From Candidatus Omnitrophota bacterium (lineage in GTDB: Bacteria > Omnitrophota > Gorgyraeia > Duberdicusellales > 4484-171), in the NCBI GenBank assembly GCA_043820815.1, contig JBDRDJ010000012.1, positions 41,952 through 105,951 of the forward strand: a stretch of DNA of 64,000 nt. The letters run 5' to 3'. This document shows, one piece after another, positions 52,977 to 64,000 of this stretch (positions within the stretch are counted from its first letter, which is position 1; each line of letters opens with the position of its first letter). The notes beneath the pieces were generated by a model that made no database searches, was not told the DNA's origin, and worked only from the letters and a program-made list of their open reading frames with translations. The translations under genes and the position numbers were made by a program.

Positions 52977-53229
52977 AATAGCCGCTGTTTTAAGCGCAGT
53001 TATTGTTTTTGCCATGGTTGTCTATTTTCCTAACCTTTCCAAGCTAAAGCAGCTGAGGGCGGAAAATGCCAAGCTGGCAAAAGAACAGGATAATTTGCGA
53101 GTCAAGATAAACGAGCTGCGTGAAAATATTGAAGCGGTAAAAACCGACCCTTCTCTTTTTGAACAGCTTGCGCGTGACACCATAGGAGTCGCCAAAGAAG
53201 ACGAAATAGTTATTGACATAGAGGAATAA
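52933..53229 (+). CDS. ftsB: Septum formation initiator FtsB/DivIC family protein
   Basis: 98 aa. One TM, then a coiled coil ([30 protein letters not shown]) and [22 protein letters not shown]. Conserved eno-ftsB adjacency. 44-nt overlap with eno. Confidence 0.7.
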
Positions 53230-53268
53230 ATTGTTAGAATACGCAATACGAATTGTTGTTTGAAATTT

Positions 53269-53345
53269 CGCGGGGTGGAGCAGCCAGGTAGCTCGCAAGG
53301 CTCATAACCTTGAGGTCGTCAGTTCAACTCTGACCCCCGCAACCA
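53269..53345 (+). tRNA. Initiator tRNA-fMet (anticodon CAT), CCA encoded
   Basis: The 77-nt cloverleaf was folded by hand: acceptor CGCGGGG/CCCCGCA with a C1-A72 mismatch, an A11-U24 pair, anticodon loop CTCATAA and T-loop TTCAACT. It is near-identical in layout to E. coli tRNA-fMet. Confidence 0.9.
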
Positions 53346-53359
53346 TTGTTTTAGTTTAG

Positions 53360-53395
53360 AAGGCCTTGGTTTTATAGCCAAGGCCTTATTTATTT
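53360..53395 (+). terminator. Rho-independent terminator after the tRNA
   Basis: Perfect 10-bp stem AAGGCCTTGG (53360-53369) with CCAAGGCCTT (53378-53387). 8-nt loop, followed by ATTTATTT. Confidence 0.7.
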
Positions 53396-53503: not shown

Positions 53504-54643
53504 ATGGTTTTAGAAAACTATGAAGTTTCAGTGGTTTTGCCCTGCTATAACGAGCAGGAGTCAATAGCAGCCTGTGTAGAGAAGATAAAAGGTGTTTTTG
53601 CCAAAGAAAATATACACGGAGAAATCATAGTAGTTGATAATAATTCAACCGATTCTTCAGCCCGTATTGCTAAGCAGTCAGGTGCTGAAATAGTTTTTCA
53701 GCCGATAAAGGGATACGGTGCCGCATATATCAAAGGTTTAGAAACGGCCCGCGCCCCTTTTATTATTATGGGTGATGCAGATAACACTTATGATTTTAAT
53801 GATATTCCCAGGTTTTTAGAGAAGCTGCGTAGTGGCTATGGCCTTGTGATGGGCTCACGTTTTAAAGGTAAAATCCACAAGGGTGCAATGCCATGGGCTA
53901 ACCGTTATATAGGCAATCCTATCCTTTCAGGGCTGTGCAGGTTGTTTTTCCGGACAAAACTTTCAGATATACACTGCGGAATGCGCGGATTTACAAAAGA
54001 GGCTTATCTTGTTATGAATCTGAGGTGCCTTGGAATGGAGTTTGCCACAGAAATGGTAATGGAGGCTTTGCAGAAAAAGTTAAAGATAACCGAAATACCC
54101 ATAGATTATTATCCAAGGGGAGGCGAGTCAAAATTAAGGCCAATAAGGGATGCCTGGCGGCACATGCGCTTTATGCTTATTTTTTGCCCAACATGGCTTT
54201 ATCTTTTTCCCGGGCTGTTTCTTACTGTTTTTGGAATATTAGGATTGTTTTTGCTTGCCCCGGGGCCGTTTATGTTTTTAGGAAGGTTTTGGGATATCCA
54301 TGTTATGGTATTGTGCTCTCTTTTAAGTATATTCGGCTATCAGCTTATGAGCATGGGTATGTTTGCCAAAACCTTTGCCGTAAAAGAAGGGTATCTTGCA
54401 GAGGATAAAACATTTTCCTTTTTAGCTAAGAATTTCAAACTCGAAACAGGGTTATTTTTAGGTTTTGTCTTTTTCTTATTTGGTTTTTCAATTAACTTTC
54501 TTATTTTTATCGAGTGGTGGCAGAAAGCATTCGGAGCTCTTTTTAGAATAAGAGAAACAATCCTTGCAGTCACCCTTATGATAGTAGGCTTACAAACTAT
54601 GTTTTCTTCATTTTTTGTCAGTCTTATCGTTATTGAAAGATAA
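53504..54643 (+). CDS. GT2 polyprenyl-phosphate sugar synthase-like glycosyltransferase (DPM1/GtrB/ArnC type) with C-terminal TM bundle
   Basis: VSVVLPCYNEQESI, VVDNNSTDSS and MGDADNTYD (DxD). The C-terminal third has about four hydrophobic helices. Confidence 0.8.
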   Translation: MVLENYEVSVVLPCYNEQESIAACVEKIKGVFAKENIHGEIIVVDNNSTDSSARIAKQSGAEIVFQPIKGYGAAYIKGLETARAPFIIMGDADNTYDFNDIPRFLEKLRSGYGLVMGSRFKGKIHKGAMPWANRYIGNPILSGLCRLFFRTKLSDIHCGMRGFTKEAYLVMNLRCLGMEFATEMVMEALQKKLKITEIPIDYYPRGGESKLRPIRDAWRHMRFMLIFCPTWLYLFPGLFLTVFGILGLFLLAPGPFMFLGRFWDIHVMVLCSLLSIFGYQLMSMGMFAKTFAVKEGYLAEDKTFSFLAKNFKLETGLFLGFVFFLFGFSINFLIFIEWWQKAFGALFRIRETILAVTLMIVGLQTMFSSFFVSLIVIER

Positions 54644-54666: not shown

Positions 54667-57264
54667 ATGATAAAGCAATTATTCACGATAAAGAAATTGG
54701 CAAAAACCCCGGTTGTCAGGAAAATTGCTCTGATAGCCGTATTCAGCTTCTGTATAGGTATTAATCTTTACCTTAGGATGTTCCTTGCCTATTTTCCTCA
54801 GTTGAAAACTCAAGCGCGGACTGAAGTTGAGAATAAAATTTCCAAAGATTCCATAGAAAAAGCCCAGGGGCTGTTCCCTGATTATAATTCTTATGCTCAA
54901 GACGAAATGGCTGTCGAGTTTTTTAAGGAAGCCGTAAAGGGCAAGAAAATATTCAACCGGCAGGTTAGCGAAAAATATACAGAGTTAAAAAGTAAATATC
55001 AGGATGAAACCGGCCAGACTTATCTTTTAGAGCTTGACCCCTATCAGTGGATGCGCTATACGGAAAACGTAGTAAAATACGGTCATCCCGGAGATAGAAA
55101 AGTAAAAGGAAAAAGTTATGACACTCACATGTTAGCCCCTGTAGGCATGCATATAGGGCCGGTGCGGTTTTTATTTTATTTTTCCGCACATCTTTATAAA
55201 GCAATCACTTTTTTCTATAAGGGGTTGTCATTTTATAAATATCTTTTCTACTTACCTCTTTTTTATACCTTTGTTTTTTTATTTATTGTTTATGTTTTTT
55301 CAGTCAAACTGTTTTCTCATTGGGGGGCGTTTGTTGCAACTCTTTTTATAGGATTAAACAGTATTTTTATCCGCAGAAGCTGTGCCGGCTGGTATGATTA
55401 TGATACGTTGAGCCTTATTGTGCCTTTACTTTTAGTTTGGTGCTTGTTTACCGCTTTATCAGGAAGAGTAAACTTAAGAAGGCTTACCATATATTCTATC
55501 ATTGCTTCATTCTTGCAGGGATTATACTCTTTTACCTGGGTAGGGTGGTGGTTTATTTTTCTTGTCGTATCATGTTTTTTTCTTTGCATGATTCTTAATA
55601 ATTACTGTCTTTATTATAAAGATTTAAGAAATGCCCACAGGCAGAATGCTCCTTACTTTATCTCGGCAATAATCTTTACGGCGGGAAGTATTTTATTCTG
55701 CTTTCTTATTTCCCGAATAAATCTTTTAACTTTTATTATTTCCAGTATAAAAGAGAACTTAAACCTGGGTAAATCCCTGTCGGTGTCTATCTGGCCCAAT
55801 ACTAATTATACAATAGGAGAATTGAAACCAGCGGACATGCTTAGAATAGCAGAAAATCTCCATGGTTTGTTGATGTTTGTTTTGTCTTTGTTCGGCATGC
55901 TTTGGTTCTATTCCAAGGAGAAAAGAGGAAGGCGCAAAGATTTTGTGTATATTATGCTTTTCTGGTTTTTATTTATGATCTTTGCTTCTTCTCGCAGTAT
56001 ACGTTTTGTGATATATCTGGCGGTTCCCTTAGGTTTTTTTCTGGGAGGATTTACAGATAACATTGTTAAAATAATTGGCGAAAAAAAATACCTTAAGGTT
56101 GGATTCCGGCATGCTTCTTATATAGGTTTTTTTCTGGCAATATGCCTTTTCACATGGATTGTTTTATCTTCAGGCATTAAGAGCTGCAAGCAGGTTTACC
56201 CGTTAATGGATGATGGCTGGCATAGAGTGCTTATGCGTATAAGAGCAGAAACCCCTTCCAATGCTGTTGTAAATTCCTGGTGGGATTATGGAAATTTCTT
56301 TAAGACAACGGCCGGGAGGCGGGTAATATTTGACGGCCAGTCTCAGAGCGGCACTCTTACTTATTGGATGGGAAAAGCCCTTGTGAGCGAGGACGAGAAT
56401 TCAGCCATGCGTATACTGAGGATGATAAACAACGCCTCTGACGGCACATTTAATTCTCTAAATAGCTACATTATAGATCCCTATAAAACTCTTGGGACTC
56501 TTGAACAATTATTGCTTTTGGATAGAGATAAAGGAGAAAATCTTTTACGCAAGAACAAAATACCCGCGAATATTATCAGTAAAGTAATGGATGATTTGCA
56601 TAAGGTGCCTGACCCGGCATATTTTATCGTTGATAGTACTATGGTAGGTAAAATGAGCCCGATTTCTTTTTTAGGCAATTGGGACGTTAAAAAACTTTAT
56701 ATTTATAAGAATATCAATGAGTCGAAGGCTGATGTCTTGAATGCGTTGCGTAGTATTTTTGGACTTTCCCCGGAAAGTGCCCAAAGCTATTATAACGAGA
56801 TAACCATAACGCCTGAGGGTAAACCTGTTTATGAGAGCTTATCGCAGAGATACTTCTACAATGGATATGCCGCCAAGGCAACAAAAACCGGAAATCTCAT
56901 CCATTTTGATAACGGGTTTTTATACAATTTTGATGCAAAGCAGGGGATTTTGTATTCTATAATGAATTTATCTTTCAAGAAGCCAAAGACGATTGTTGTT
57001 ACCGATGAGCATTCGCAAGAAAAGATTAAAACGGATGATGGCGATTATGAGAGAGCGGTGTGGATGTTTAAGGTTGATGATCAGTACCAGTCTATAATTC
57101 TAAACGAACCTCTGGCAAACTCGTTATTTTCCCGCTTATATTTTATAAAAGGAAGAGGGCTTAAGTGTTTTACGCCGTTTATAATGGATACAGAAGCAAA
57201 AATCTTTGTGTATAAGATAGAGTGGGATAAGGCCTGTGAAGATGCTGATAATTTGAGCGAATAG
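54667..57264 (+). CDS. STT3/AglB/PglB-family oligosaccharyltransferase (GT-C)
   Basis: 865 aa and polytopic. ELDPYQWMRY (55030-55059), WYDYD (55390-55404), TIGE (55810-55821) and WWDYG (56278-56292) occur in the order expected for OST catalytic subunits. A large C-terminal soluble domain follows. Confidence 0.8.
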   Translation: MIKQLFTIKKLAKTPVVRKIALIAVFSFCIGINLYLRMFLAYFPQLKTQARTEVENKISKDSIEKAQGLFPDYNSYAQDEMAVEFFKEAVKGKKIFNRQVSEKYTELKSKYQDETGQTYLLELDPYQWMRYTENVVKYGHPGDRKVKGKSYDTHMLAPVGMHIGPVRFLFYFSAHLYKAITFFYKGLSFYKYLFYLPLFYTFVFLFIVYVFSVKLFSHWGAFVATLFIGLNSIFIRRSCAGWYDYDTLSLIVPLLLVWCLFTALSGRVNLRRLTIYSIIASFLQGLYSFTWVGWWFIFLVVSCFFLCMILNNYCLYYKDLRNAHRQNAPYFISAIIFTAGSILFCFLISRINLLTFIISSIKENLNLGKSLSVSIWPNTNYTIGELKPADMLRIAENLHGLLMFVLSLFGMLWFYSKEKRGRRKDFVYIMLFWFLFMIFASSRSIRFVIYLAVPLGFFLGGFTDNIVKIIGEKKYLKVGFRHASYIGFFLAICLFTWIVLSSGIKSCKQVYPLMDDGWHRVLMRIRAETPSNAVVNSWWDYGNFFKTTAGRRVIFDGQSQSGTLTYWMGKALVSEDENSAMRILRMINNASDGTFNSLNSYIIDPYKTLGTLEQLLLLDRDKGENLLRKNKIPANIISKVMDDLHKVPDPAYFIVDSTMVGKMSPISFLGNWDVKKLYIYKNINESKADVLNALRSIFGLSPESAQSYYNEITITPEGKPVYESLSQRYFYNGYAAKATKTGNLIHFDNGFLYNFDAKQGILYSIMNLSFKKPKTIVVTDEHSQEKIKTDDGDYERAVWMFKVDDQYQSIILNEPLANSLFSRLYFIKGRGLKCFTPFIMDTEAKIFVYKIEWDKACEDADNLSE

Positions 57265-57299
57265 GCCGCCTGCCTTCATCGAGGCTGTTGTGATTGTCA

Positions 57300-58259
57300 A
57301 TGAGCAATAAGAATAAAATATGTATAATCGTTCCCGCCAAAGGAAATCCCTCAACACTTATTTCTTGTATTGAAAGCCTTATTAACTTGGACTACCGGCC
57401 TTTTGAGATTAGTATTGTTGATGACGGTCTGAGTGCTGATTCCGTGAAACTTCTTGAGCGCTTTGCAGGCAGAATAAATATTTTGCACAGCGATTCCCGC
57501 GGCCCCTCAAGCGCCCGCAACATGGCCGTTTACAATACCGATGTGCCATTTGTTGCTTTCACGGATTGCGATTGTATTGTAGACAAACAATGGCTGTTTG
57601 AATTAGCCAGGGGTTTTCAGGAATTTCCCCAAGCAGCCGCCTGCGGCGGGATTCAAGAAATCCCTGAAGATACAGGGCAATTTGAGAAAAAAGTTAATTT
57701 GCTGATGCAAAAAGCAAGCTGCGTTACTGATTACATGCGAAGCCCCAATACCGATAAGATCACCGAAGTAAAACATAATGCATCTTGCTGCGCTATGTAT
57801 AAGCGGGATGTTTTCTTAAAGGAAAAGGGTTTTTCAGAGGGGTTATGGCCGGGGGAGGATGTTGAATTTGATTGCCGGTTACGGAAAAAAGGGTATAAGA
57901 TTTTTTGCAACCCAAAAGCAGTTGTATATCATTACCGGACAAAAGACAGGGCAGCGTTTAATAGTATGATGTTTCGATACGGGAGAGCCCAGGGGATTCT
58001 GGTGAGGAAATATAATATTTTAAGAACAATACATATAGTGCCGTTATTGAGCTTGTTTATGATTGCTTTATTTATTTTAAGTTTGCAGTTTAATTTTTCA
58101 TTACTCTATTTAATCGTTATAACCGCATTGGGGTTGTCTCTTTGGGCTTATCTAAGGTTTGATTGGCGTATGTTGGAATTGGCGTTTAAAGGAGCTATAT
58201 ATTGGAATTGTGGGTTTTTTAAGGGTTTGATATCTAACAGGGCTGGGTATGGTATATGA
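57300..58259 (+). CDS. Family 2 glycosyltransferase with C-terminal membrane segments
   Basis: ICIIVPAKGN, ISIVDDGLS and FTDCDC (DxD-like). Two C-terminal hydrophobic helices. The ORF opens at TTG 57294. Confidence 0.8.
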   Translation: MSNKNKICIIVPAKGNPSTLISCIESLINLDYRPFEISIVDDGLSADSVKLLERFAGRINILHSDSRGPSSARNMAVYNTDVPFVAFTDCDCIVDKQWLFELARGFQEFPQAAACGGIQEIPEDTGQFEKKVNLLMQKASCVTDYMRSPNTDKITEVKHNASCCAMYKRDVFLKEKGFSEGLWPGEDVEFDCRLRKKGYKIFCNPKAVVYHYRTKDRAAFNSMMFRYGRAQGILVRKYNILRTIHIVPLLSLFMIALFILSLQFNFSLLYLIVITALGLSLWAYLRFDWRMLELAFKGAIYWNCGFFKGLISNRAGYGI

Positions 58260-59731
58260 GTTTAAGACAGAGTGAAGCAATGAAAATACTTGTTATCAAT
58301 GAGCCTTTTGTGCCGGATTTTTGCCGCACCCAGCGTTGGGCCGCGCGCACACGAGGAAGGGTTTTACGCGCACCTGACTGGCTGGCGTATGCAGCTTCTG
58401 TTCTTGAAAGAGATGGTTTTGATGTTGAACTGTATGATTTTTGTGCTTTAAGATGGGAGAAAGGAAAAATAGCTTCTTTAGCGAATGAGAAGAAACCCGA
58501 TTTCGTTATTCTTGATTCAACTACGCCTTCGATTTATTCTGATATAGAATGTGCGAAAATAATAAAAGATAATTCTAATGCCCGCGTAATCATGGTTGGG
58601 CCGCATGTTTCTGCTCTGCCGGATGAGGTGCTAAGAGATGCCCGGGGAGCGGTTGATGCAGCCTGTATAGGTGAATACGATTACACAGTCCGGGATGCCG
58701 TGCGTAATTTTGATAATTTAGAAAGAGTCCCGGGTATTGCCTGGTTTAATAGGGGGCTGATAAAGAAGACTTCGCCGCGGCCCCTCATAGAAAATCTTGA
58801 CGAAATTCCTTTTCCTGCCTGGCATCATTTAGATTTGATGAAATATTTTGACGGAGGAAAGCTGTACCCGTATATCGATGTTATTTCCGGCAGAGGCTGC
58901 CCGAATCGCTGCTCTTTTTGCCTTTGGCCGCAGGTTATGCATGGGTTTAAGTACCGCTTAAGGAGCCCATGCAATGTTGTTGATGAATTAGAATACGATA
59001 TAAAATTGTGCCCGAGGGTGCTAAAAGGCGAATTTTTCTTTGAGGACGATACGTTTACTGTTGATAGAGAACGTGCGATATTGATTTGCGAGGAGATTCT
59101 AAAGAGAGGTTTAAAGATTAATTTTTCCGTAAATGCCAGGGCTGACAGCGCTGACTTAGAAATGTTTAAGGTTATGAAGAAGGCCGGTTGCCGGGAACTT
59201 TTGGTTGGATTTGAGTCGGGAGTTCAGCAAATTCTGGATAATGTAAATAAAAACATAAAAGTTGAAGATTCATATAGATTTGTGGAGTTAGCTAAAAAAG
59301 CCAAATTACAGGTTCATGGATGCTTTGTTATTGGCTTGCCTGGTGAAACAGAGGAAACGGCTAAAAAAACCGTTGATTTCGCTTTATCTTTAGGCTGCGA
59401 TACTTTGCAATTTTCAGGAGCCGTGCCTTTTCCGGGAACAAAATTTTTTGAGCTGGCTGAATCGTCGGGATGGCTTAAATCCAGGGACTGGGCACAGTGG
59501 TTAGGCAGCGGAGAACAGAAAGGCATTATTTCTTATCCCGGTATTTCAGAAGACGCGGTTAATCATTATGTTGATCTGGGGTTACGCAAGTTTTATTTCA
59601 GGCCGATGTATATGTTGAAATTCCTTTTTGATACTCATTCAGTTTCAGATTTATATCGTAAATTAAGAGGGGCCTGCAATTTTGTTAATTATAATTTTGA
59701 GAAGGTTGTTTGCCGCCGCAAGAATTGTTAA
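58256..59731 (+). CDS. B12-binding-domain radical SAM protein (class B, putative methyltransferase)
   Basis: N-terminal cobalamin-binding-like domain (KILVINEPF...VIMVGPHVSALP) and SGRGCPNRCSFCLWPQ cluster motif. ATGA overlap with the upstream GT2. Confidence 0.8.
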   Translation: MSLRQSEAMKILVINEPFVPDFCRTQRWAARTRGRVLRAPDWLAYAASVLERDGFDVELYDFCALRWEKGKIASLANEKKPDFVILDSTTPSIYSDIECAKIIKDNSNARVIMVGPHVSALPDEVLRDARGAVDAACIGEYDYTVRDAVRNFDNLERVPGIAWFNRGLIKKTSPRPLIENLDEIPFPAWHHLDLMKYFDGGKLYPYIDVISGRGCPNRCSFCLWPQVMHGFKYRLRSPCNVVDELEYDIKLCPRVLKGEFFFEDDTFTVDRERAILICEEILKRGLKINFSVNARADSADLEMFKVMKKAGCRELLVGFESGVQQILDNVNKNIKVEDSYRFVELAKKAKLQVHGCFVIGLPGETEETAKKTVDFALSLGCDTLQFSGAVPFPGTKFFELAESSGWLKSRDWAQWLGSGEQKGIISYPGISEDAVNHYVDLGLRKFYFRPMYMLKFLFDTHSVSDLYRKLRGACNFVNYNFEKVVCRRKNC

Positions 59732-59999
59732 CTCCAAGAACATATCAAGTATTTATAGAGGAAGGCGTTTCTTGAATTTCATCTGTGCCCGCGGATATTG
59801 CGGAGTTTTTGCCTGGAATATCGTTTTTGGAAAGGATTATTTAAATCAGGATCGTTATCACGGAACTAAATATAAGTATCTTGAGTGATTTTAAAAAAGG
59901 TGAAAGCGAGCGGCTGTTGTTTTCTTTCTTAAAAAATGATAGACTTTTTAAAATTTCATTTTTTACCTTTAACTAAAGGCGTCATTCAGGGAGTTCAAC

Positions 60000-61001
60000 A
60001 TGATTCAGTTTGATAAGAATAAACTAAAAGAAATTCATCAAGACATATTAATTGATCTTTACAGGATAATGTTACGGATCAGAATGATTGAAGACGCGAT
60101 AGGAGAGGAATACCCAAAGGATGAAATGAAAACGCCTATACATCTTTGCACCGGCCAGGAGGCGATTCCCGCGGGTGTTTGTAAATATCTTAAAAAGGAT
60201 GATTATGTTTTAAGTAATTATAGAGGACACGGTCATTATCTTGCTAAGGGGGGGGATTTAAGATCTCTCATAGCCGAGCTTTACGGAAGAGATACCGGTT
60301 GCTGCCGCGGAAGAGGCGGTTCCATGCATATAGTTGATGTTTCAGTGGGGATTGTAGGGACTTCCGCCATTGTAGGAGGAGGTGTTCCAATCGCAACAGG
60401 AATTGGATTAGCTTCTGTTTTAGAGAAGAACTCCCGGGTATCAGTTGTGTTTTTTGGCGACGGAGCTGTTGATGAGGGTGTGTTGTATGAGAGCATAAAT
60501 TTTTCCATGCTCAAGAAGCTGCCGGTTATTTACGCTTGCGAGAACAATTTTTACGCGGTGTGCTCTCATCAGAGTAAACGTCAGCCCCGGGATAATATTT
60601 ATTGCCGGTTTCAGGGATGCGGAATCCCCGGTTATAGAGTCGACGGCAATAATGTGATTGAGGTTTATCAGATAGCGAAAAATGTTATAGATAATGCCCG
60701 CCGAGGAGGAGGCCCGGCTTTCATAGAATTCAGAACATACCGGTGGAAAGGCCATTCCGGAAATGATTCGGATGTGAGTTTAGGGTATCGGACGCAGGAA
60801 GAACTCGATGAATGGGTAAAACGATGCCCCTTGAAAAATTTCGAAAATTTCTTATTAGATGAAAGAATTATTGCTAAGGAACAAATACGTTTATTTGAGC
60901 AGGATATTGATAAGGAGATACAGGAAGCATTTGAGTTCGCGCAAAAAAGCCCTTTCCCTGATGAGGAGAGTATTATGGATTATCTTTATAAAGAAAAGTA
61001 G
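60000..61001 (+). CDS. Thiamine-diphosphate-dependent dehydrogenase E1 component, alpha subunit
   Basis: YRGHGHYLAKGGD, GRGGSMHI and the TPP motif GDGAVDEGVLYESINFSMLKKLPVIYACENN. Confidence 0.85.
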   Translation: MIQFDKNKLKEIHQDILIDLYRIMLRIRMIEDAIGEEYPKDEMKTPIHLCTGQEAIPAGVCKYLKKDDYVLSNYRGHGHYLAKGGDLRSLIAELYGRDTGCCRGRGGSMHIVDVSVGIVGTSAIVGGGVPIATGIGLASVLEKNSRVSVVFFGDGAVDEGVLYESINFSMLKKLPVIYACENNFYAVCSHQSKRQPRDNIYCRFQGCGIPGYRVDGNNVIEVYQIAKNVIDNARRGGGPAFIEFRTYRWKGHSGNDSDVSLGYRTQEELDEWVKRCPLKNFENFLLDERIIAKEQIRLFEQDIDKEIQEAFEFAQKSPFPDEESIMDYLYKEK

Positions 61002-61007
61002 GGTTAT

Positions 61008-62060
61008 ATGGGTATAAGTTTTGACTGGGATAAAAAGAGTATCGAAAGAGAAGAACCCGGGTTTGAAGATGTGTTAAAGCATGGCGGCCGGAAAATAAAA
61101 TATGCAGAGGCTCTTCATGAGGCTTTTGACGAGATTTTGGCGACAAATGATAAAGTGTTTGTTATGGGGCAGGGGGCAGATGACCCTTTTGGCATGTTCG
61201 GAAGCATTTTAGATTTATATAAAAAATACGGGAATGAAAGGATTTTTGATACCCCTTTGTCAGAAGATTCTTTAACCGGGGTTGCTGTGGGAGCGGCTCT
61301 TGCGGGCCTGCGGCCTGTTTATATGCATAACCGGCCGGATTTTTTACTGCTTGCCATGGATCAAATCGTTAATCACGCTTCCAAATGGCATTACATGTTT
61401 GGAGGAAAGATCAGCGTTCCTTTAGTAATCTGGGCGGTAATCGGCAGGGGGTGGGGATCTGCGGCTCAACATTCTCAATGTATCCAGGGTTTATTGATGC
61501 ATATTCCCGGATTAAAGATTGTTATGCCTTCTACTCCGTATGATTCCAAAGGATTATTGGTTTCCAGCATATTCGATGATAACCCGGTTATTATTTTAGA
61601 ACACCGGTGGTTGTTGAAAGGCAGCGGCTATGTTCCTAAGGGATTATATACCATTCCTTTTGGAAAGGGAGTTGTTAAAAGGGGTGGTAAAGATGTTACT
61701 ATTGTCGGTACATCTTACATGATAGTAGAAGCGATACGTGCGGCAGAAGAATTAAGCAGGGAGAACATTGAAGTCGAAGTTATAGATTTGCGCACCTTAA
61801 AGCCGCTAGATGAAGCCATTATTTTAGAATCCGTAAAAAAAACCGGGCGTCTTGTAATTACTGATGTGGGATGGAAAACAGCGGGCGTAACAGCTGAGAT
61901 TGCCGCAGTTGTAGCAGAAAAAGGTTTTTCTTATCTTAAAAGGCCTATTAAAAGAGCGGCGTCTTTAGATATTCCTACTCCCGCATGCCATATATTAGAG
62001 AAAAAGTTTTATGCTGATGTAAAAGATATTATTTCATCCGTAAAGGAGCTTATGAAATGA
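61008..62060 (+). CDS. E1 component beta subunit (transketolase-like pyrimidine-binding and C-terminal domains)
   Basis: VFVMGQGADDPFG, FDTPLSEDSLTGVAVGAALAGLRPV and VIDLRTLKPLD. Confidence 0.85.
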   Translation: MGISFDWDKKSIEREEPGFEDVLKHGGRKIKYAEALHEAFDEILATNDKVFVMGQGADDPFGMFGSILDLYKKYGNERIFDTPLSEDSLTGVAVGAALAGLRPVYMHNRPDFLLLAMDQIVNHASKWHYMFGGKISVPLVIWAVIGRGWGSAAQHSQCIQGLLMHIPGLKIVMPSTPYDSKGLLVSSIFDDNPVIILEHRWLLKGSGYVPKGLYTIPFGKGVVKRGGKDVTIVGTSYMIVEAIRAAEELSRENIEVEVIDLRTLKPLDEAIILESVKKTGRLVITDVGWKTAGVTAEIAAVVAEKGFSYLKRPIKRAASLDIPTPACHILEKKFYADVKDIISSVKELMK

Positions 62061-62989
62061 AGATATTGGTTACGGGAGGAGCAGGGTATATTGGTTCGGT
62101 TCTGGTCGCGGAATTAATTAAATCCGGGTACGAAGCGGTTGTTATCGATAATTTCATGTATAATCAAACCTCTCTTCTGGATTGTTGTTATGATAAAAAA
62201 TTGACCGTAGTCCGCGGGGATGTAAGAAATACAAAATTAATTTTAGAATGGGTGAAAAAGACTGACGCGTTCTTCCCTTTAGCCTGTTTAACCGGAGCCC
62301 CGATATGCAATGAACGGCCTTATGAGGCAAAATCAATTATTGTCGATGCCGTAAAAACAGTATTAGATGAACGCAGTAAGAATCAGCCGATAATTTTTCC
62401 CACAACGAATAGCGGCTACGGTATAGGGCAGAAAGGTACTTTCTGTACGGAAGAAACGCCTTTAAATCCTGTTTCTATCTACGGGAAACTAAAAGTAGAG
62501 GCGGAAAAAATCCTTCTTGATGCTGGCAACTGTATTACATTAAGGCTGGCAACCGCGTTTGGCATCAGCCCTCGGATGAGGCTTGATCTTCTTGTAAATG
62601 ATTTTGTTTACCGCGCGGTAAATGACCGGTTTATTATTGTTTTTCAGGCGGCTTTTAAACGCAATTATATACATGTCCGTGATGTGGCTAAGGCCTTTAT
62701 CCATTCTTTAGAAAATTACGAAAGCATGAAAAATAATTGTTATAACGTAGGCTTAAGCGACGCGAATTTAAGTAAATTGGAGTTATGCGAAGAAATAAAA
62801 AAACATCTCCCGGATTTTTATTTTGTTGAAGCCCAGGTAGGTGAAGACCCGGATAAAAGAGATTATGTTGTCAGTAATGATAAAATTGAAAAGACAGGTT
62901 TTATGCCCGATTTTTCATTGCCGGCCGGGATCGCCGAACTTATAAAAGGTTTTCAGGTTATACGGAGAAATAATTTTTCAAATCTGTAA
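62057..62989 (+). CDS. NAD-dependent epimerase/dehydratase (extended SDR)
   Basis: MKILVTGGAGYIGS Rossmann motif and the YGKLK catalytic YxxxK. ATGA overlap with E1 beta. Confidence 0.85.
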   Translation: MKILVTGGAGYIGSVLVAELIKSGYEAVVIDNFMYNQTSLLDCCYDKKLTVVRGDVRNTKLILEWVKKTDAFFPLACLTGAPICNERPYEAKSIIVDAVKTVLDERSKNQPIIFPTTNSGYGIGQKGTFCTEETPLNPVSIYGKLKVEAEKILLDAGNCITLRLATAFGISPRMRLDLLVNDFVYRAVNDRFIIVFQAAFKRNYIHVRDVAKAFIHSLENYESMKNNCYNVGLSDANLSKLELCEEIKKHLPDFYFVEAQVGEDPDKRDYVVSNDKIEKTGFMPDFSLPAGIAELIKGFQVIRRNNFSNL

Positions 62990-63043
62990 AACGGGGATTA
63001 AAAAATATTTACCCCGTTAGAGAACTACGTCCTCTAACGGGGT
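62990..63043 (+). repeat. Two overlapping, mutually exclusive hairpins (AACGGGG / CCCCGTTAGAG / CTCTAACGGGG)
   Basis: Hairpin A pairs AACGGGG (62990-62996) with CCCCGTT (63012-63018). Hairpin B is a perfect 12-bp stem, ACCCCGTTAGAG (63011-63022) with CTCTAACGGGGT (63032-63043). Confidence 0.65.
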
Positions 63044-63074: not shown

Positions 63075-64000
63075 ATGATTATTAGCCGTACGCCGTTTCG
63101 TATATCATTTTTTGGAGGAGGAACCGATTACCCGATTTGGTACCGCAAACACGGCGGCGCAGTTTTAGCTACGACAATAAACAAATATTGTTATATCAGC
63201 TGCAGGTATTTACCTCCCTTTTTTCCCCATAAATACCGTATTATTTATTCTCAGATAGAGCTTGTCAAGAATATTTCTGAGATTAATCATCCTTCCGTCC
63301 GAGAGGGTTTGAAGTTTATGAAGATAAAAAGAGGATTGGAAGTTCATCATGACGCCGATCTTCCTGCCCGTACGGGGTTAGGGTCAAGTTCTTCTTTCAC
63401 GGTGGGCTTATTGCATACATTAAACGCGATTAAAGGGAGTATATCGACAAAGCGGCAGCTGGCGCTTGATGCCATATATCTTGAACAGGAGATGATGAAG
63501 GAGAATGTTGGATCTCAGGATCAGGTATCGGCTTCCTTTGGGGGGATGAACTATATAAAATTTAACAGTCATCAGGATATTGAAGTCCATCCGATTACTA
63601 TAACAGCTAAGAGAATGAGTTTGTTTCACAGCCATTTAATGCTTTTTTTTACCGGTTTCTCAAGGATAGCTTCTGATATAGCCGCGGAGCAGATAAAAAC
63701 AATTCATTCAAAAACTAAAGAGCTTCGCCAGATACATGATATGGTTGACGCGTCTTTGCAAATTTTAACCGGTAAATCTGATTTTATCAAATTCGGGAAA
63801 TTACTGCATGAGCATTGGAAGATTAAGCGCGGTTTATCGAAGAAGATATCAACGCCTCTCATAGATGAGATGTATACAACGGCTTTAAGGGCAGGAGCAA
63901 TAGGAGGGAAAATACTAGGTGCCGGGGGAGGAGGGTTTTTATTGATTTTTGCTAAGCCCCAGGATCAAGCTCGCATTAAAGAGAAGTTAAAGAAACTCTT
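63075..64000 (+). CDS. GHMP-family sugar kinase (HddA-like D-glycero-D-manno-heptose 7-phosphate kinase type), 3' end outside window
   Basis: This ORF is not in the supplied track because no stop is reached. It reads MIISRTPFRISFFGGGTDYP and LPARTGLGSSSSF (GHMP motif), then GGKILGAGGGGF. GGAG SD at 63063-63066. Confidence 0.75.
   Translation, partial: MIISRTPFRISFFGGGTDYPIWYRKHGGAVLATTINKYCYISCRYLPPFFPHKYRIIYSQIELVKNISEINHPSVREGLKFMKIKRGLEVHHDADLPARTGLGSSSSFTVGLLHTLNAIKGSISTKRQLALDAIYLEQEMMKENVGSQDQVSASFGGMNYIKFNSHQDIEVHPITITAKRMSLFHSHLMLFFTGFSRIASDIAAEQIKTIHSKTKELRQIHDMVDASLQILTGKSDFIKFGKLLHEHWKIKRGLSKKISTPLIDEMYTTALRAGAIGGKILGAGGGGFLLIFAKPQDQARIKEKLKKL

Follow-up and report, generated by a model that had tools for sequence, protein, structure and literature searches.

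What does a pair of genes for the E1alpha and E1beta subunits of a thiamine pyrophosphate (TPP)-dependent 2-oxoacid dehydrogenase do in a glycan locus in which no genes for the partner enzymes E2 and E3 adjoin it? The question is raised by a 64,000-nucleotide stretch of DNA from a metagenome-assembled genome (MAG) of Candidatus Omnitrophota (contig JBDRDJ010000012.1, positions 41,952 to 105,951), which was analyzed at its full length and is called the window below. The original prediction for this DNA had placed the E1 pair in one pathway with a radical S-adenosylmethionine (SAM) enzyme encoded upstream and a short-chain dehydrogenase/reductase (SDR) encoded downstream, and had suggested a branched or C-methylated sugar as the product. 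We found that the E1 pair belongs to a widespread cassette of sugar-nucleotide genes, whereas the radical SAM enzyme belongs to a separate glycosylation module. With slightly more confidence than doubt, we propose that the E1 pair installs an acyl branch at C-4 of a nucleoside diphosphate (NDP)-activated 4-keto-heptose, or of its 3-deoxy derivative.

The locus contains two conserved glycan modules, which are arranged head to tail on the plus strand. The E1 pair opens the second module. The E1alpha gene (60000-61001) encodes a TPP-binding protein that matched PF00676 with 239 bits and contains the GDG...NN motif for TPP. It is followed, after 6 nt, by the E1beta gene (61008-62060), which encodes the pyrimidine-binding and transketolase-C domains (PF02779 and PF02780). 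The gene for an extended SDR (62057-62989; PF01370) comes next, and the sequence itself shows that its start codon and the stop codon of the E1beta gene overlap as ATGA at 62057-62060. A GHMP-type sugar kinase gene (63075-64000; PF00288 and PF08544) follows after a spacer of 85 bp, and it is cut by the end of the window after 308 codons, so that the second module is seen only in part. The spacer contains a hairpin with a stem of 15 bp (63011-63043) and a T-run on the minus strand only. The open reading frames, including both ATGA overlaps of the locus, were located as they had been predicted, and Pfam agreed with each of the assignments.

The best matches of the pair were to the E1 subunits of pyruvate dehydrogenase (PDH). 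E1alpha scored 334 bits with the PDH equivalog model TIGR03182 (cut-off 394) and 218 bits with TIGR03181 (cut-off 411), in both cases too low for the model, and human PDH E1alpha aligned to it with 188 bits. E1beta barely exceeded the cut-off of the subfamily model NF006667 (325 versus 321 bits) and scored below that of the equivalog model NF008854 (299 versus 454 bits). Residue H252 of E1alpha is invariant in the family and aligned with the His of the HGHS motif in human PDH E1alpha, which we take to be the active-site His. No gene for E2 or E3 was found in the window when it was searched with E. coli AceF and Lpd using phmmer.

A set of 160 related loci, collected from metagenomes and species-representative genomes and supplemented with the loci of close homologs, was used to analyze the genomic context of the pair, and the open reading frames of the loci were scored against the window proteins and against E. 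coli E2 and E3. The relatives that were obtained in the genome and metagenome scans had identities of at most 70%. Among the 110 loci with a length of at least 8 kb, 67 contained sugar-nucleotide or glycan genes and 10 contained E2, and not a single one contained both. In a neighbor-joining tree, all 13 E2-linked E1alpha proteins were found in one clade of 18 leaves, mostly from Bathyarchaeia with some from Deltaproteobacteria. The window E1alpha was placed in a separate clade of 19 leaves, and no locus of this clade contained E2 or E3. Instead, 10 of its members were accompanied by a gene similar to Campylobacter Cj1427, 8 by the kinase gene, 10 by a DegT-family gene, and 12 by a B12-binding radical SAM gene. 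In 6 of 20 loci, no more than 150 bp separated a Cj1427-like gene from the E1 pair. The association of E1 with heptose genes recurred in Omnitrophota, Planctomycetota, Chloroflexota, Desulfovibrionia, Pelagibacter, and others, and the cassette was also present in Nitrospirota-like MAGs. A comparison of the active sites between the E2-linked clade and the heptose clades was uninformative: only four columns of the E1alpha alignment differed, and when two of these, columns 74 and 101, were mapped onto human PDH E1alpha, the residue of the heptose clades was identical to the human residue.

These results bore out the view that the pair is an orphan, as it is co-conserved with sugar-nucleotide genes instead of E2 and E3, and they confirmed the predicted co-occurrence with glycan genes. 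By these results, membership of the pair in a pyruvate dehydrogenase complex is very improbable.

The nature of the sugar is indicated by the two genes downstream of the E1 pair. The SDR aligned over its full length with the PDB entries 6VO6 and 6VO8 (402 bits, 57.8% identity over 308 ungapped residues), and in a homology search the sequence cluster nearest to the 6VO6 chain was a 313-aa protein of Campylobacter jejuni with 96% identity. We take 6VO6 to be the GDP-heptose C4-dehydrogenase Cj1427, in keeping with its C. jejuni origin and with a depositor name that presumably corresponds to the Cj1427c annotation. Judged by this similarity, the window SDR is very probably a Cj1427-type enzyme that forms a 4-keto sugar. 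The part of the original prediction that foresaw a 4-keto-sugar-forming enzyme was thus upheld, whereas the generic assignment as an epimerase or dehydratase had to give way to that of a GDP-heptose C4-dehydrogenase. Roles of the 310-aa SDR as a 4,6-dehydratase or as the reductase of a branch ketone had also been considered, and were dropped after the match to 6VO6. The close resemblance of the SDR to the C. jejuni protein points to a heptose with a retained O-6 as the sugar, and not to a 6-deoxyhexose. Cj1427 oxidizes GDP-heptose at C4, and 2-oxoglutarate serves as the oxidant (PMC10680097).

The kinase gene is located directly downstream of the C4-dehydrogenase gene, and its product belongs to the HddA/WcbL family. 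It scored 135 bits with the HddA model NF049969, far below the cut-off of 600. Its best PDB matches, with about 108-117 bits, were 3K85 and 4N3O, both named heptose phosphate kinases by their depositors, as well as 4USM and 4USK, which are named just "putative sugar kinase" and are presumably WcbL of Burkholderia pseudomallei.

Further genes of the cassette were found in the related loci. These comprised an HddC/ManC-like nucleotidyltransferase and an SDR similar to Fcl, i.e. to GDP-fucose synthase (366-434 bits), and, in some loci, GmhA (NF010546, 201 bits) and GmhB (NF006506, 162 bits). One database protein of 513 aa (P0103) is a natural fusion in which an E1alpha of the family under study is joined to a heptose bisphosphate phosphatase of the GmhB type. 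A conserved B12-binding radical SAM enzyme of the cassette fits no curated family. The cassettes also encode a DegT-family protein, which has a His in place of the Lys that binds pyridoxal phosphate (PLP), in the sequence SLYVAH or SFYYAHH. Its best PDB matches were ColD and 3BCX, the E1 dehydrase of Yersinia (CDP-6-deoxy-4-hexulose 3-dehydrase). The His aligned with that of 3BCX, and the otherwise identical entry 3BB8 has a Lys at this position; we take 3BB8 to be the H220K mutant of the enzyme. A role of the DegT-family protein as a C-4 aminotransferase was therefore abandoned, since the exchange of the PLP-binding Lys for His is the one present in E1 dehydrase and ColD.

In the cassette 3-dehydratases, the active-site His is followed further downstream by a Cys-rich stretch, HGRxCxCxxC (observed in loci L001, 12035-13246, and L173, 15005-16210), to which a stretch of the Yersinia E1 dehydrase that is likewise rich in Cys could be aligned. 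The latter is presumably the region that binds the [2Fe-2S] cluster. By this alignment, the cassette enzymes may contain an iron-sulfur cluster and depend on a partner reductase.

A complete E1/heptose cassette was found in a cultured organism, on plasmid pDMC1 of Solidesulfovibrio magneticus RS-1 (NC_012797.1, 7100-24249; locus L173). The genes form an operon-like run in the order GT2 (family 2 glycosyltransferase), GT2, B12-binding radical SAM, NUDIX, kinase, E1alpha, E1beta, Fcl-like SDR, DegT, Cj1427-like SDR, nucleotidyltransferase, GT-C transferase, two hypothetical genes, L-2-hydroxyglutarate oxidase (LhgO), and SIS/GmhA. DMR_RS21995 and DMR_RS22000 are the E1 pair of this run. LhgO scored 328 bits, above the equivalog cut-off of 299, and no such gene is present in the window. 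Its presence on the plasmid lends indirect support to the Cj1427-type assignment, because such a dehydrogenase would need its by-product L-2-hydroxyglutarate to be re-oxidized. IS66 transposase genes are located upstream of the plasmid cassette.

Taken together, the cassette probably modifies an activated heptose and adds a carbon branch to it. From the gene identities and their co-conservation we infer a branching reaction, a donor substrate, and an order of steps, as follows. The HddA-like kinase would activate D-glycero-D-manno-heptose on its way to the nucleotide sugar, a route to which the relatives would contribute the HddC/ManC-like nucleotidyltransferase and, in some cases, GmhA and GmhB. 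The Cj1427-type SDR would then oxidize C-4 and yield the NDP-4-keto-heptose, with 2-oxoglutarate re-oxidizing the tightly bound NADH. In the relatives, O-3 would be removed by the pyridoxamine phosphate (PMP)-dependent enzyme of the E1-dehydrase/ColD type. E1alpha/beta would use TPP to decarboxylate a 2-oxoacid, pyruvate or a different one, and transfer the acyl anion to the C-4 ketone, which would result in a 4-C-acyl-branched heptose. The Fcl-like reductase and the cassette-specific B12-binding radical SAM enzyme would tailor this product, and GT2 and GT-C transferases would carry the sugar to its acceptor. As for the final sugar, we tentatively suggest, at somewhat less than even chance, a novel type of cell-surface sugar, a 3-deoxy-heptose that keeps O-6, has an acyl or hydroxyalkyl branch at C-4, might be C-methylated by the dedicated B12-binding radical SAM enzyme, and is attached to proteins or lipids by the GT2 and GT-C transferases.

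This scheme follows the enzyme logic of yersiniose formation, in which an NDP-4-keto sugar is made, loses O-3 through a His-type PMP-dependent dehydratase, receives at C-4 the acyl anion of a 2-oxoacid, and has its branch finished by a reductase; the 3-deoxy-4-keto acceptor made by the E1 dehydrase is used by the TPP enzyme YerE (PMC9306805). The cassette DegT protein, with its similarity to 3BCX, has its counterpart in the pathway by which Yersinia pseudotuberculosis makes yersiniose A (E1 dehydrase/E3, YerE, and the reductase YerF), of which ErwE and MyGE are relatives that form longer branches. The two differ in the core, which in yersiniose A is a CDP-6-deoxyhexose made via a 4,6-dehydratase and in the cassette a heptose with O-6, made via a Cj1427-type C4-dehydrogenase. 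Furthermore, the cassette has a split E1alpha/beta in place of YerE, and the B12-binding radical SAM enzyme is an additional conserved member. YerE and the E1 pair presumably belong to different families of TPP enzymes.

The closest precedents for the E1 pair itself were found in antibiotic biosynthesis. AviB1/B2 of avilamycin, which had already been named as a precedent in the original prediction, and Pau11/12 of paulomycin are E1-type pairs that have been proposed to use pyruvate for the installation of an acetyl branch at C-4 (PMC4753412). A comparison based on the literature and on shared Pfam families showed that these pairs, like that of the window, are E2-less E1alpha/beta pairs inside sugar biosynthesis clusters. 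They act in the tailoring of actinomycete antibiotics and on deoxy-sugars, whereas the cassette is found in cell-surface glycan loci of many phyla. In keeping with an AviB-type function, the E1 pair is coupled to a sugar C4-dehydrogenase gene with a sugar kinase gene next to it, and this company is kept across phyla. In addition, an enzyme that forms a 4-keto sugar is encoded in the window; a 3-dehydratase is encoded in the related cassettes and none in the window.

The heptose genes have their counterparts in the capsular heptose pathways of C. jejuni HS:2 and HS:5 (HddA, HddC, GmhA, Cj1427, Cj1428, and, in HS:5, a C3-dehydratase). The kinase family, the C4-dehydrogenase, the Fcl-like C4-reductase, and the PLP/PMP-dependent 3-dehydratase are shared with the cassette. 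The C. jejuni pathways differ in that they lack a TPP enzyme and a B12-binding radical SAM enzyme, and their products are unbranched heptose epimers. A 3-deoxy-4-keto-heptose that keeps O-6 has been obtained only in vitro, by combining enzymes of two C. jejuni serotypes (PMC10680097). Each of the enzyme types is known. In the literature searched, we found neither their combination into a heptose-based E1-type branching cassette that occurs across phyla nor an E1 pair in a heptose cluster.

Related E1 pairs were also observed in other contexts. In six loci (L014, L023, L025, L032, L053, and L083), from hosts such as Microcoleus, Legionellaceae, Paraglaciecola, and others, a distant SDR and a related E1 pair occur together with two DegT aminotransferases of the Lys type, the genes of which lie directly downstream of the E1 pair in most cases. 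This second context may represent a different pathway, for a branched or amino sugar. A far more elaborate modification pathway is pointed to by an Omnitrophota-type gene set (L002/L003, 1-21014), in which at least six B12-binding radical SAM genes and two further radical SAM genes surround the E1 pair, along with two additional E1-like/transketolase-like pairs, an HMGL-like gene, and aminotransferases. On plasmid pSGRIFU1 of Streptomyces griseofuscus (L174, 11986-14032), an E2-less E1alpha/beta pair with 44% identity adjoins genes for a nonribosomal peptide synthetase (NRPS) condensation domain, an acyl carrier protein (ACP), a ketosynthase (KS), and a thioesterase. Evidently, E1 pairs have been recruited into non-sugar secondary metabolism as well.

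Several points weigh against the installation of a C-4 branch on a heptose. The window shows just four genes of the cassette, those for E1alpha, E1beta, the C4-dehydrogenase, and the kinase. Genes for the nucleotidyltransferase, the 3-dehydratase, the reductase, and the cassette radical SAM enzyme are predicted beyond position 64000 by synteny with relatives such as L006, L008, and L028, in which they come after the kinase gene. GmhA and GmhB are absent from the closest loci, and with a kinase so far below the HddA cut-off, the sugar could differ from heptose. E1alpha retains the catalytic His and has no clade-specific change in the active site that would signal a new reaction. The clades were taken from a neighbor-joining tree that carries no bootstrap support values. 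The roles of AviB1/B2 and Pau11/12 are themselves proposals (PMC4753412).

An alternative that we regard as rather unlikely is that the E1 pair acts in the heptose pathway and catalyzes another TPP-dependent reaction. Candidates are the non-oxidative decarboxylation of a sugar 2-oxoacid, the extension of an aldehyde in the manner of DXS or transketolase, and the provision of acyl or hydroxyalkyl groups for substitution at N or O instead of a branch at C-4. The co-conservation data fit this alternative equally, since they do not specify the reaction. The pSGRIFU1 pair is an example of a further role of E2-less pairs, and we know of no naturally occurring 4-C-branched heptose. However, the C4-dehydrogenase and the 3-dehydratase of the E1-dehydrase/ColD type are the canonical makers of acceptors for TPP-dependent branching, the reductase could fill the role of YerF, and neither an acyltransferase nor an ACP nor an E2-like carrier is conserved in the cassette.

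We consider it improbable that the E1 pair and the SDR share one pathway toward a branched and C-methylated sugar with the radical SAM enzyme encoded at 58256, as originally predicted. The genes are neighbors on one strand, and B12-binding radical SAM genes were present in 32 of the 110 E1 loci. However, the radical SAM gene (58256-59731; PF02310 and PF04055) and the E1alpha gene are divided by a non-coding gap of 268 bp (59732-59999) that contains a terminator-like hairpin (59789-59803). The genes do not constitute the single unit that had been assumed. Rfam yielded no match to a riboswitch or a structured RNA in this gap, and its fold was not significant (z = -0.82); a regulatory RNA at this site was therefore not considered further.

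The neighborhoods of the orthologs were also at variance with a partnership between this radical SAM enzyme and E1. Orthologs with 69-77% identity were found in Omnitrophota, Elusimicrobiota, Endomicrobiia, Margulisiibacteriota, and an Aenigmatarchaeota archaeon. In five independent neighborhoods, a GT2 gene of 309-335 aa was located beside the radical SAM gene or one gene away, and in none of them was an E1 pair present. The GT2 gene adjoins the radical SAM gene in L166, L167, L168, and L171; a methyltransferase gene lies between the two in L172, and in L170 the adjoining gene encodes 320 aa and comes without Pfam data. Often, an STT3 or PMT transferase and a GT2_TM_C protein complete the set, and the genes of the window are arranged in the same way. 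The neighbors were GT2, STT3 or PMT, and methyltransferase genes, and hopanoid genes were not among them. Moreover, the radical SAM enzymes of the cassettes belong to a different family: they scored 470-554 bits among each other and 116 bits with the window enzyme (about 100-220 bits over the comparisons made, at a self-score of 1154 for the window enzyme). The expectation that a class B radical SAM enzyme acts on the same sugar as the E1 pair was thus supported for the cassette family, which has its own enzyme, and not for the gene at 58256. The latter is part of a separate, independent glycosylation module.

The remaining alternatives are very improbable. One of them holds that the pair is an ordinary E1 of a pyruvate, acetoin, or branched-chain 2-oxoacid dehydrogenase, that E2 and E3 are encoded elsewhere in the genome, and that the location in a glycan locus is coincidental. 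The best matches to PDH E1 and the conservation of the TPP motif and the catalytic His speak for it; PdhAB and AcoAB share the fold, the domains, and these residues with the window pair. Nevertheless, they differ from it in having E2/E3 partners, E1alpha falls short of the PDH cut-off, its E2-linked relatives form a clade of their own, E2 and sugar genes never occur together, and the pair is coupled to the gene of a sugar-nucleotide dehydrogenase in an association that recurs across phyla. Equally implausible is a role of the pair in handling the 2-oxoacid co-substrate (2-oxoglutarate or another) of a Cj1427-type ping-pong reaction, with the sugar left untouched: Cj1427 requires 2-oxoglutarate (PMC10680097) and the E1beta and dehydrogenase genes overlap, but decarboxylation of the oxidant would oppose the dehydrogenase, the recycling enzyme that is encoded is LhgO, and in Campylobacter, Cj1427 works although no E1 pair accompanies it (PMC10680097).

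The first module, to which the window radical SAM enzyme belongs, begins downstream of a gene for tRNA-Met (CAT; 53269-53345), which was detected by Rfam with 58.9 bits and by ARAGORN. A terminator-like hairpin with a 12-bp stem (53360-53387) follows the tRNA gene, and a near-consensus promoter-like site was seen upstream of it (region 53213-53387). The genes further upstream look like housekeeping genes when their translations are inspected by eye (Lgt, NadE, enolase, and an FtsB-like protein). The module starts with the gene of a GT2 with C-terminal membrane helices (53504-54643; PF00535, 93.6 bits), which scored 172 bits with the AglJ model TIGR04182, below the cut-off of 325, and resembles AglJ and polyprenyl-phosphate hexose synthases. 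By size, it is similar to the GT2 genes of 376-380 aa in the loci of the radical SAM orthologs that are annotated as GT2_TM_C (PF26629). The second gene encodes an STT3/AglB-like oligosaccharyltransferase with a GT-C fold and 865 aa (54667-57264; PF02516, 78.5 bits; PF21436, 30.9 bits), and an STT3 of 853 aa is encoded in the related locus L168. A GT2 of 321 aa (57294-58259; PF00535, PF13641, and PF13632) is encoded third, and its gene overlaps that of the radical SAM enzyme as ATGA at 58256-58259.

The best model for the radical SAM enzyme was HpnJ (TIGR03471), with 364 bits from end to end and below the cut-off of 578. A GT2 that is coupled to a B12-binding radical SAM enzyme is also the arrangement of HpnI/HpnJ in hopanoid cyclitol-ether biosynthesis. 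The module differs from it in the subthreshold score, in a GT2 without a match to the HpnI model, and in a context of STT3/PMT transferases instead of hopanoid genes. A possible role of the HpnJ-like radical SAM/GT2/STT3 module is the remodeling of a lipid-linked sugar prior to N-glycosylation. An STT3/AglB-type transferase beside an AglJ-like GT2 in a bacterial genome represents N-glycosylation machinery of an archaeal flavor.

Sugars that carry an acyl branch, among them yersiniose, erwiniose, caryophyllose, and the antibiotic octoses, form a rare class of relevance for immunology and pharmacology, and to our knowledge all of them are built on 3,6-dideoxyhexose cores. If the proposed function of the E1 pair is true, a heptose-based version made with an E1-type TPP enzyme would widen the chemistry of bacterial surface glycans, and it would be spread over many uncultivated phyla and abundant marine bacteria. 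TPP enzymes that form tertiary alcohols are sought as biocatalysts. Because S. magneticus RS-1 is in culture, its plasmid-borne copy allows a direct test of the prediction. The heptose-based version would also provide a function for thousands of genes that are annotated as "thiamine pyrophosphate-dependent dehydrogenase E1 component", an annotation that inflates the prediction of pyruvate and acetoin dehydrogenases in metabolic reconstructions of MAGs.

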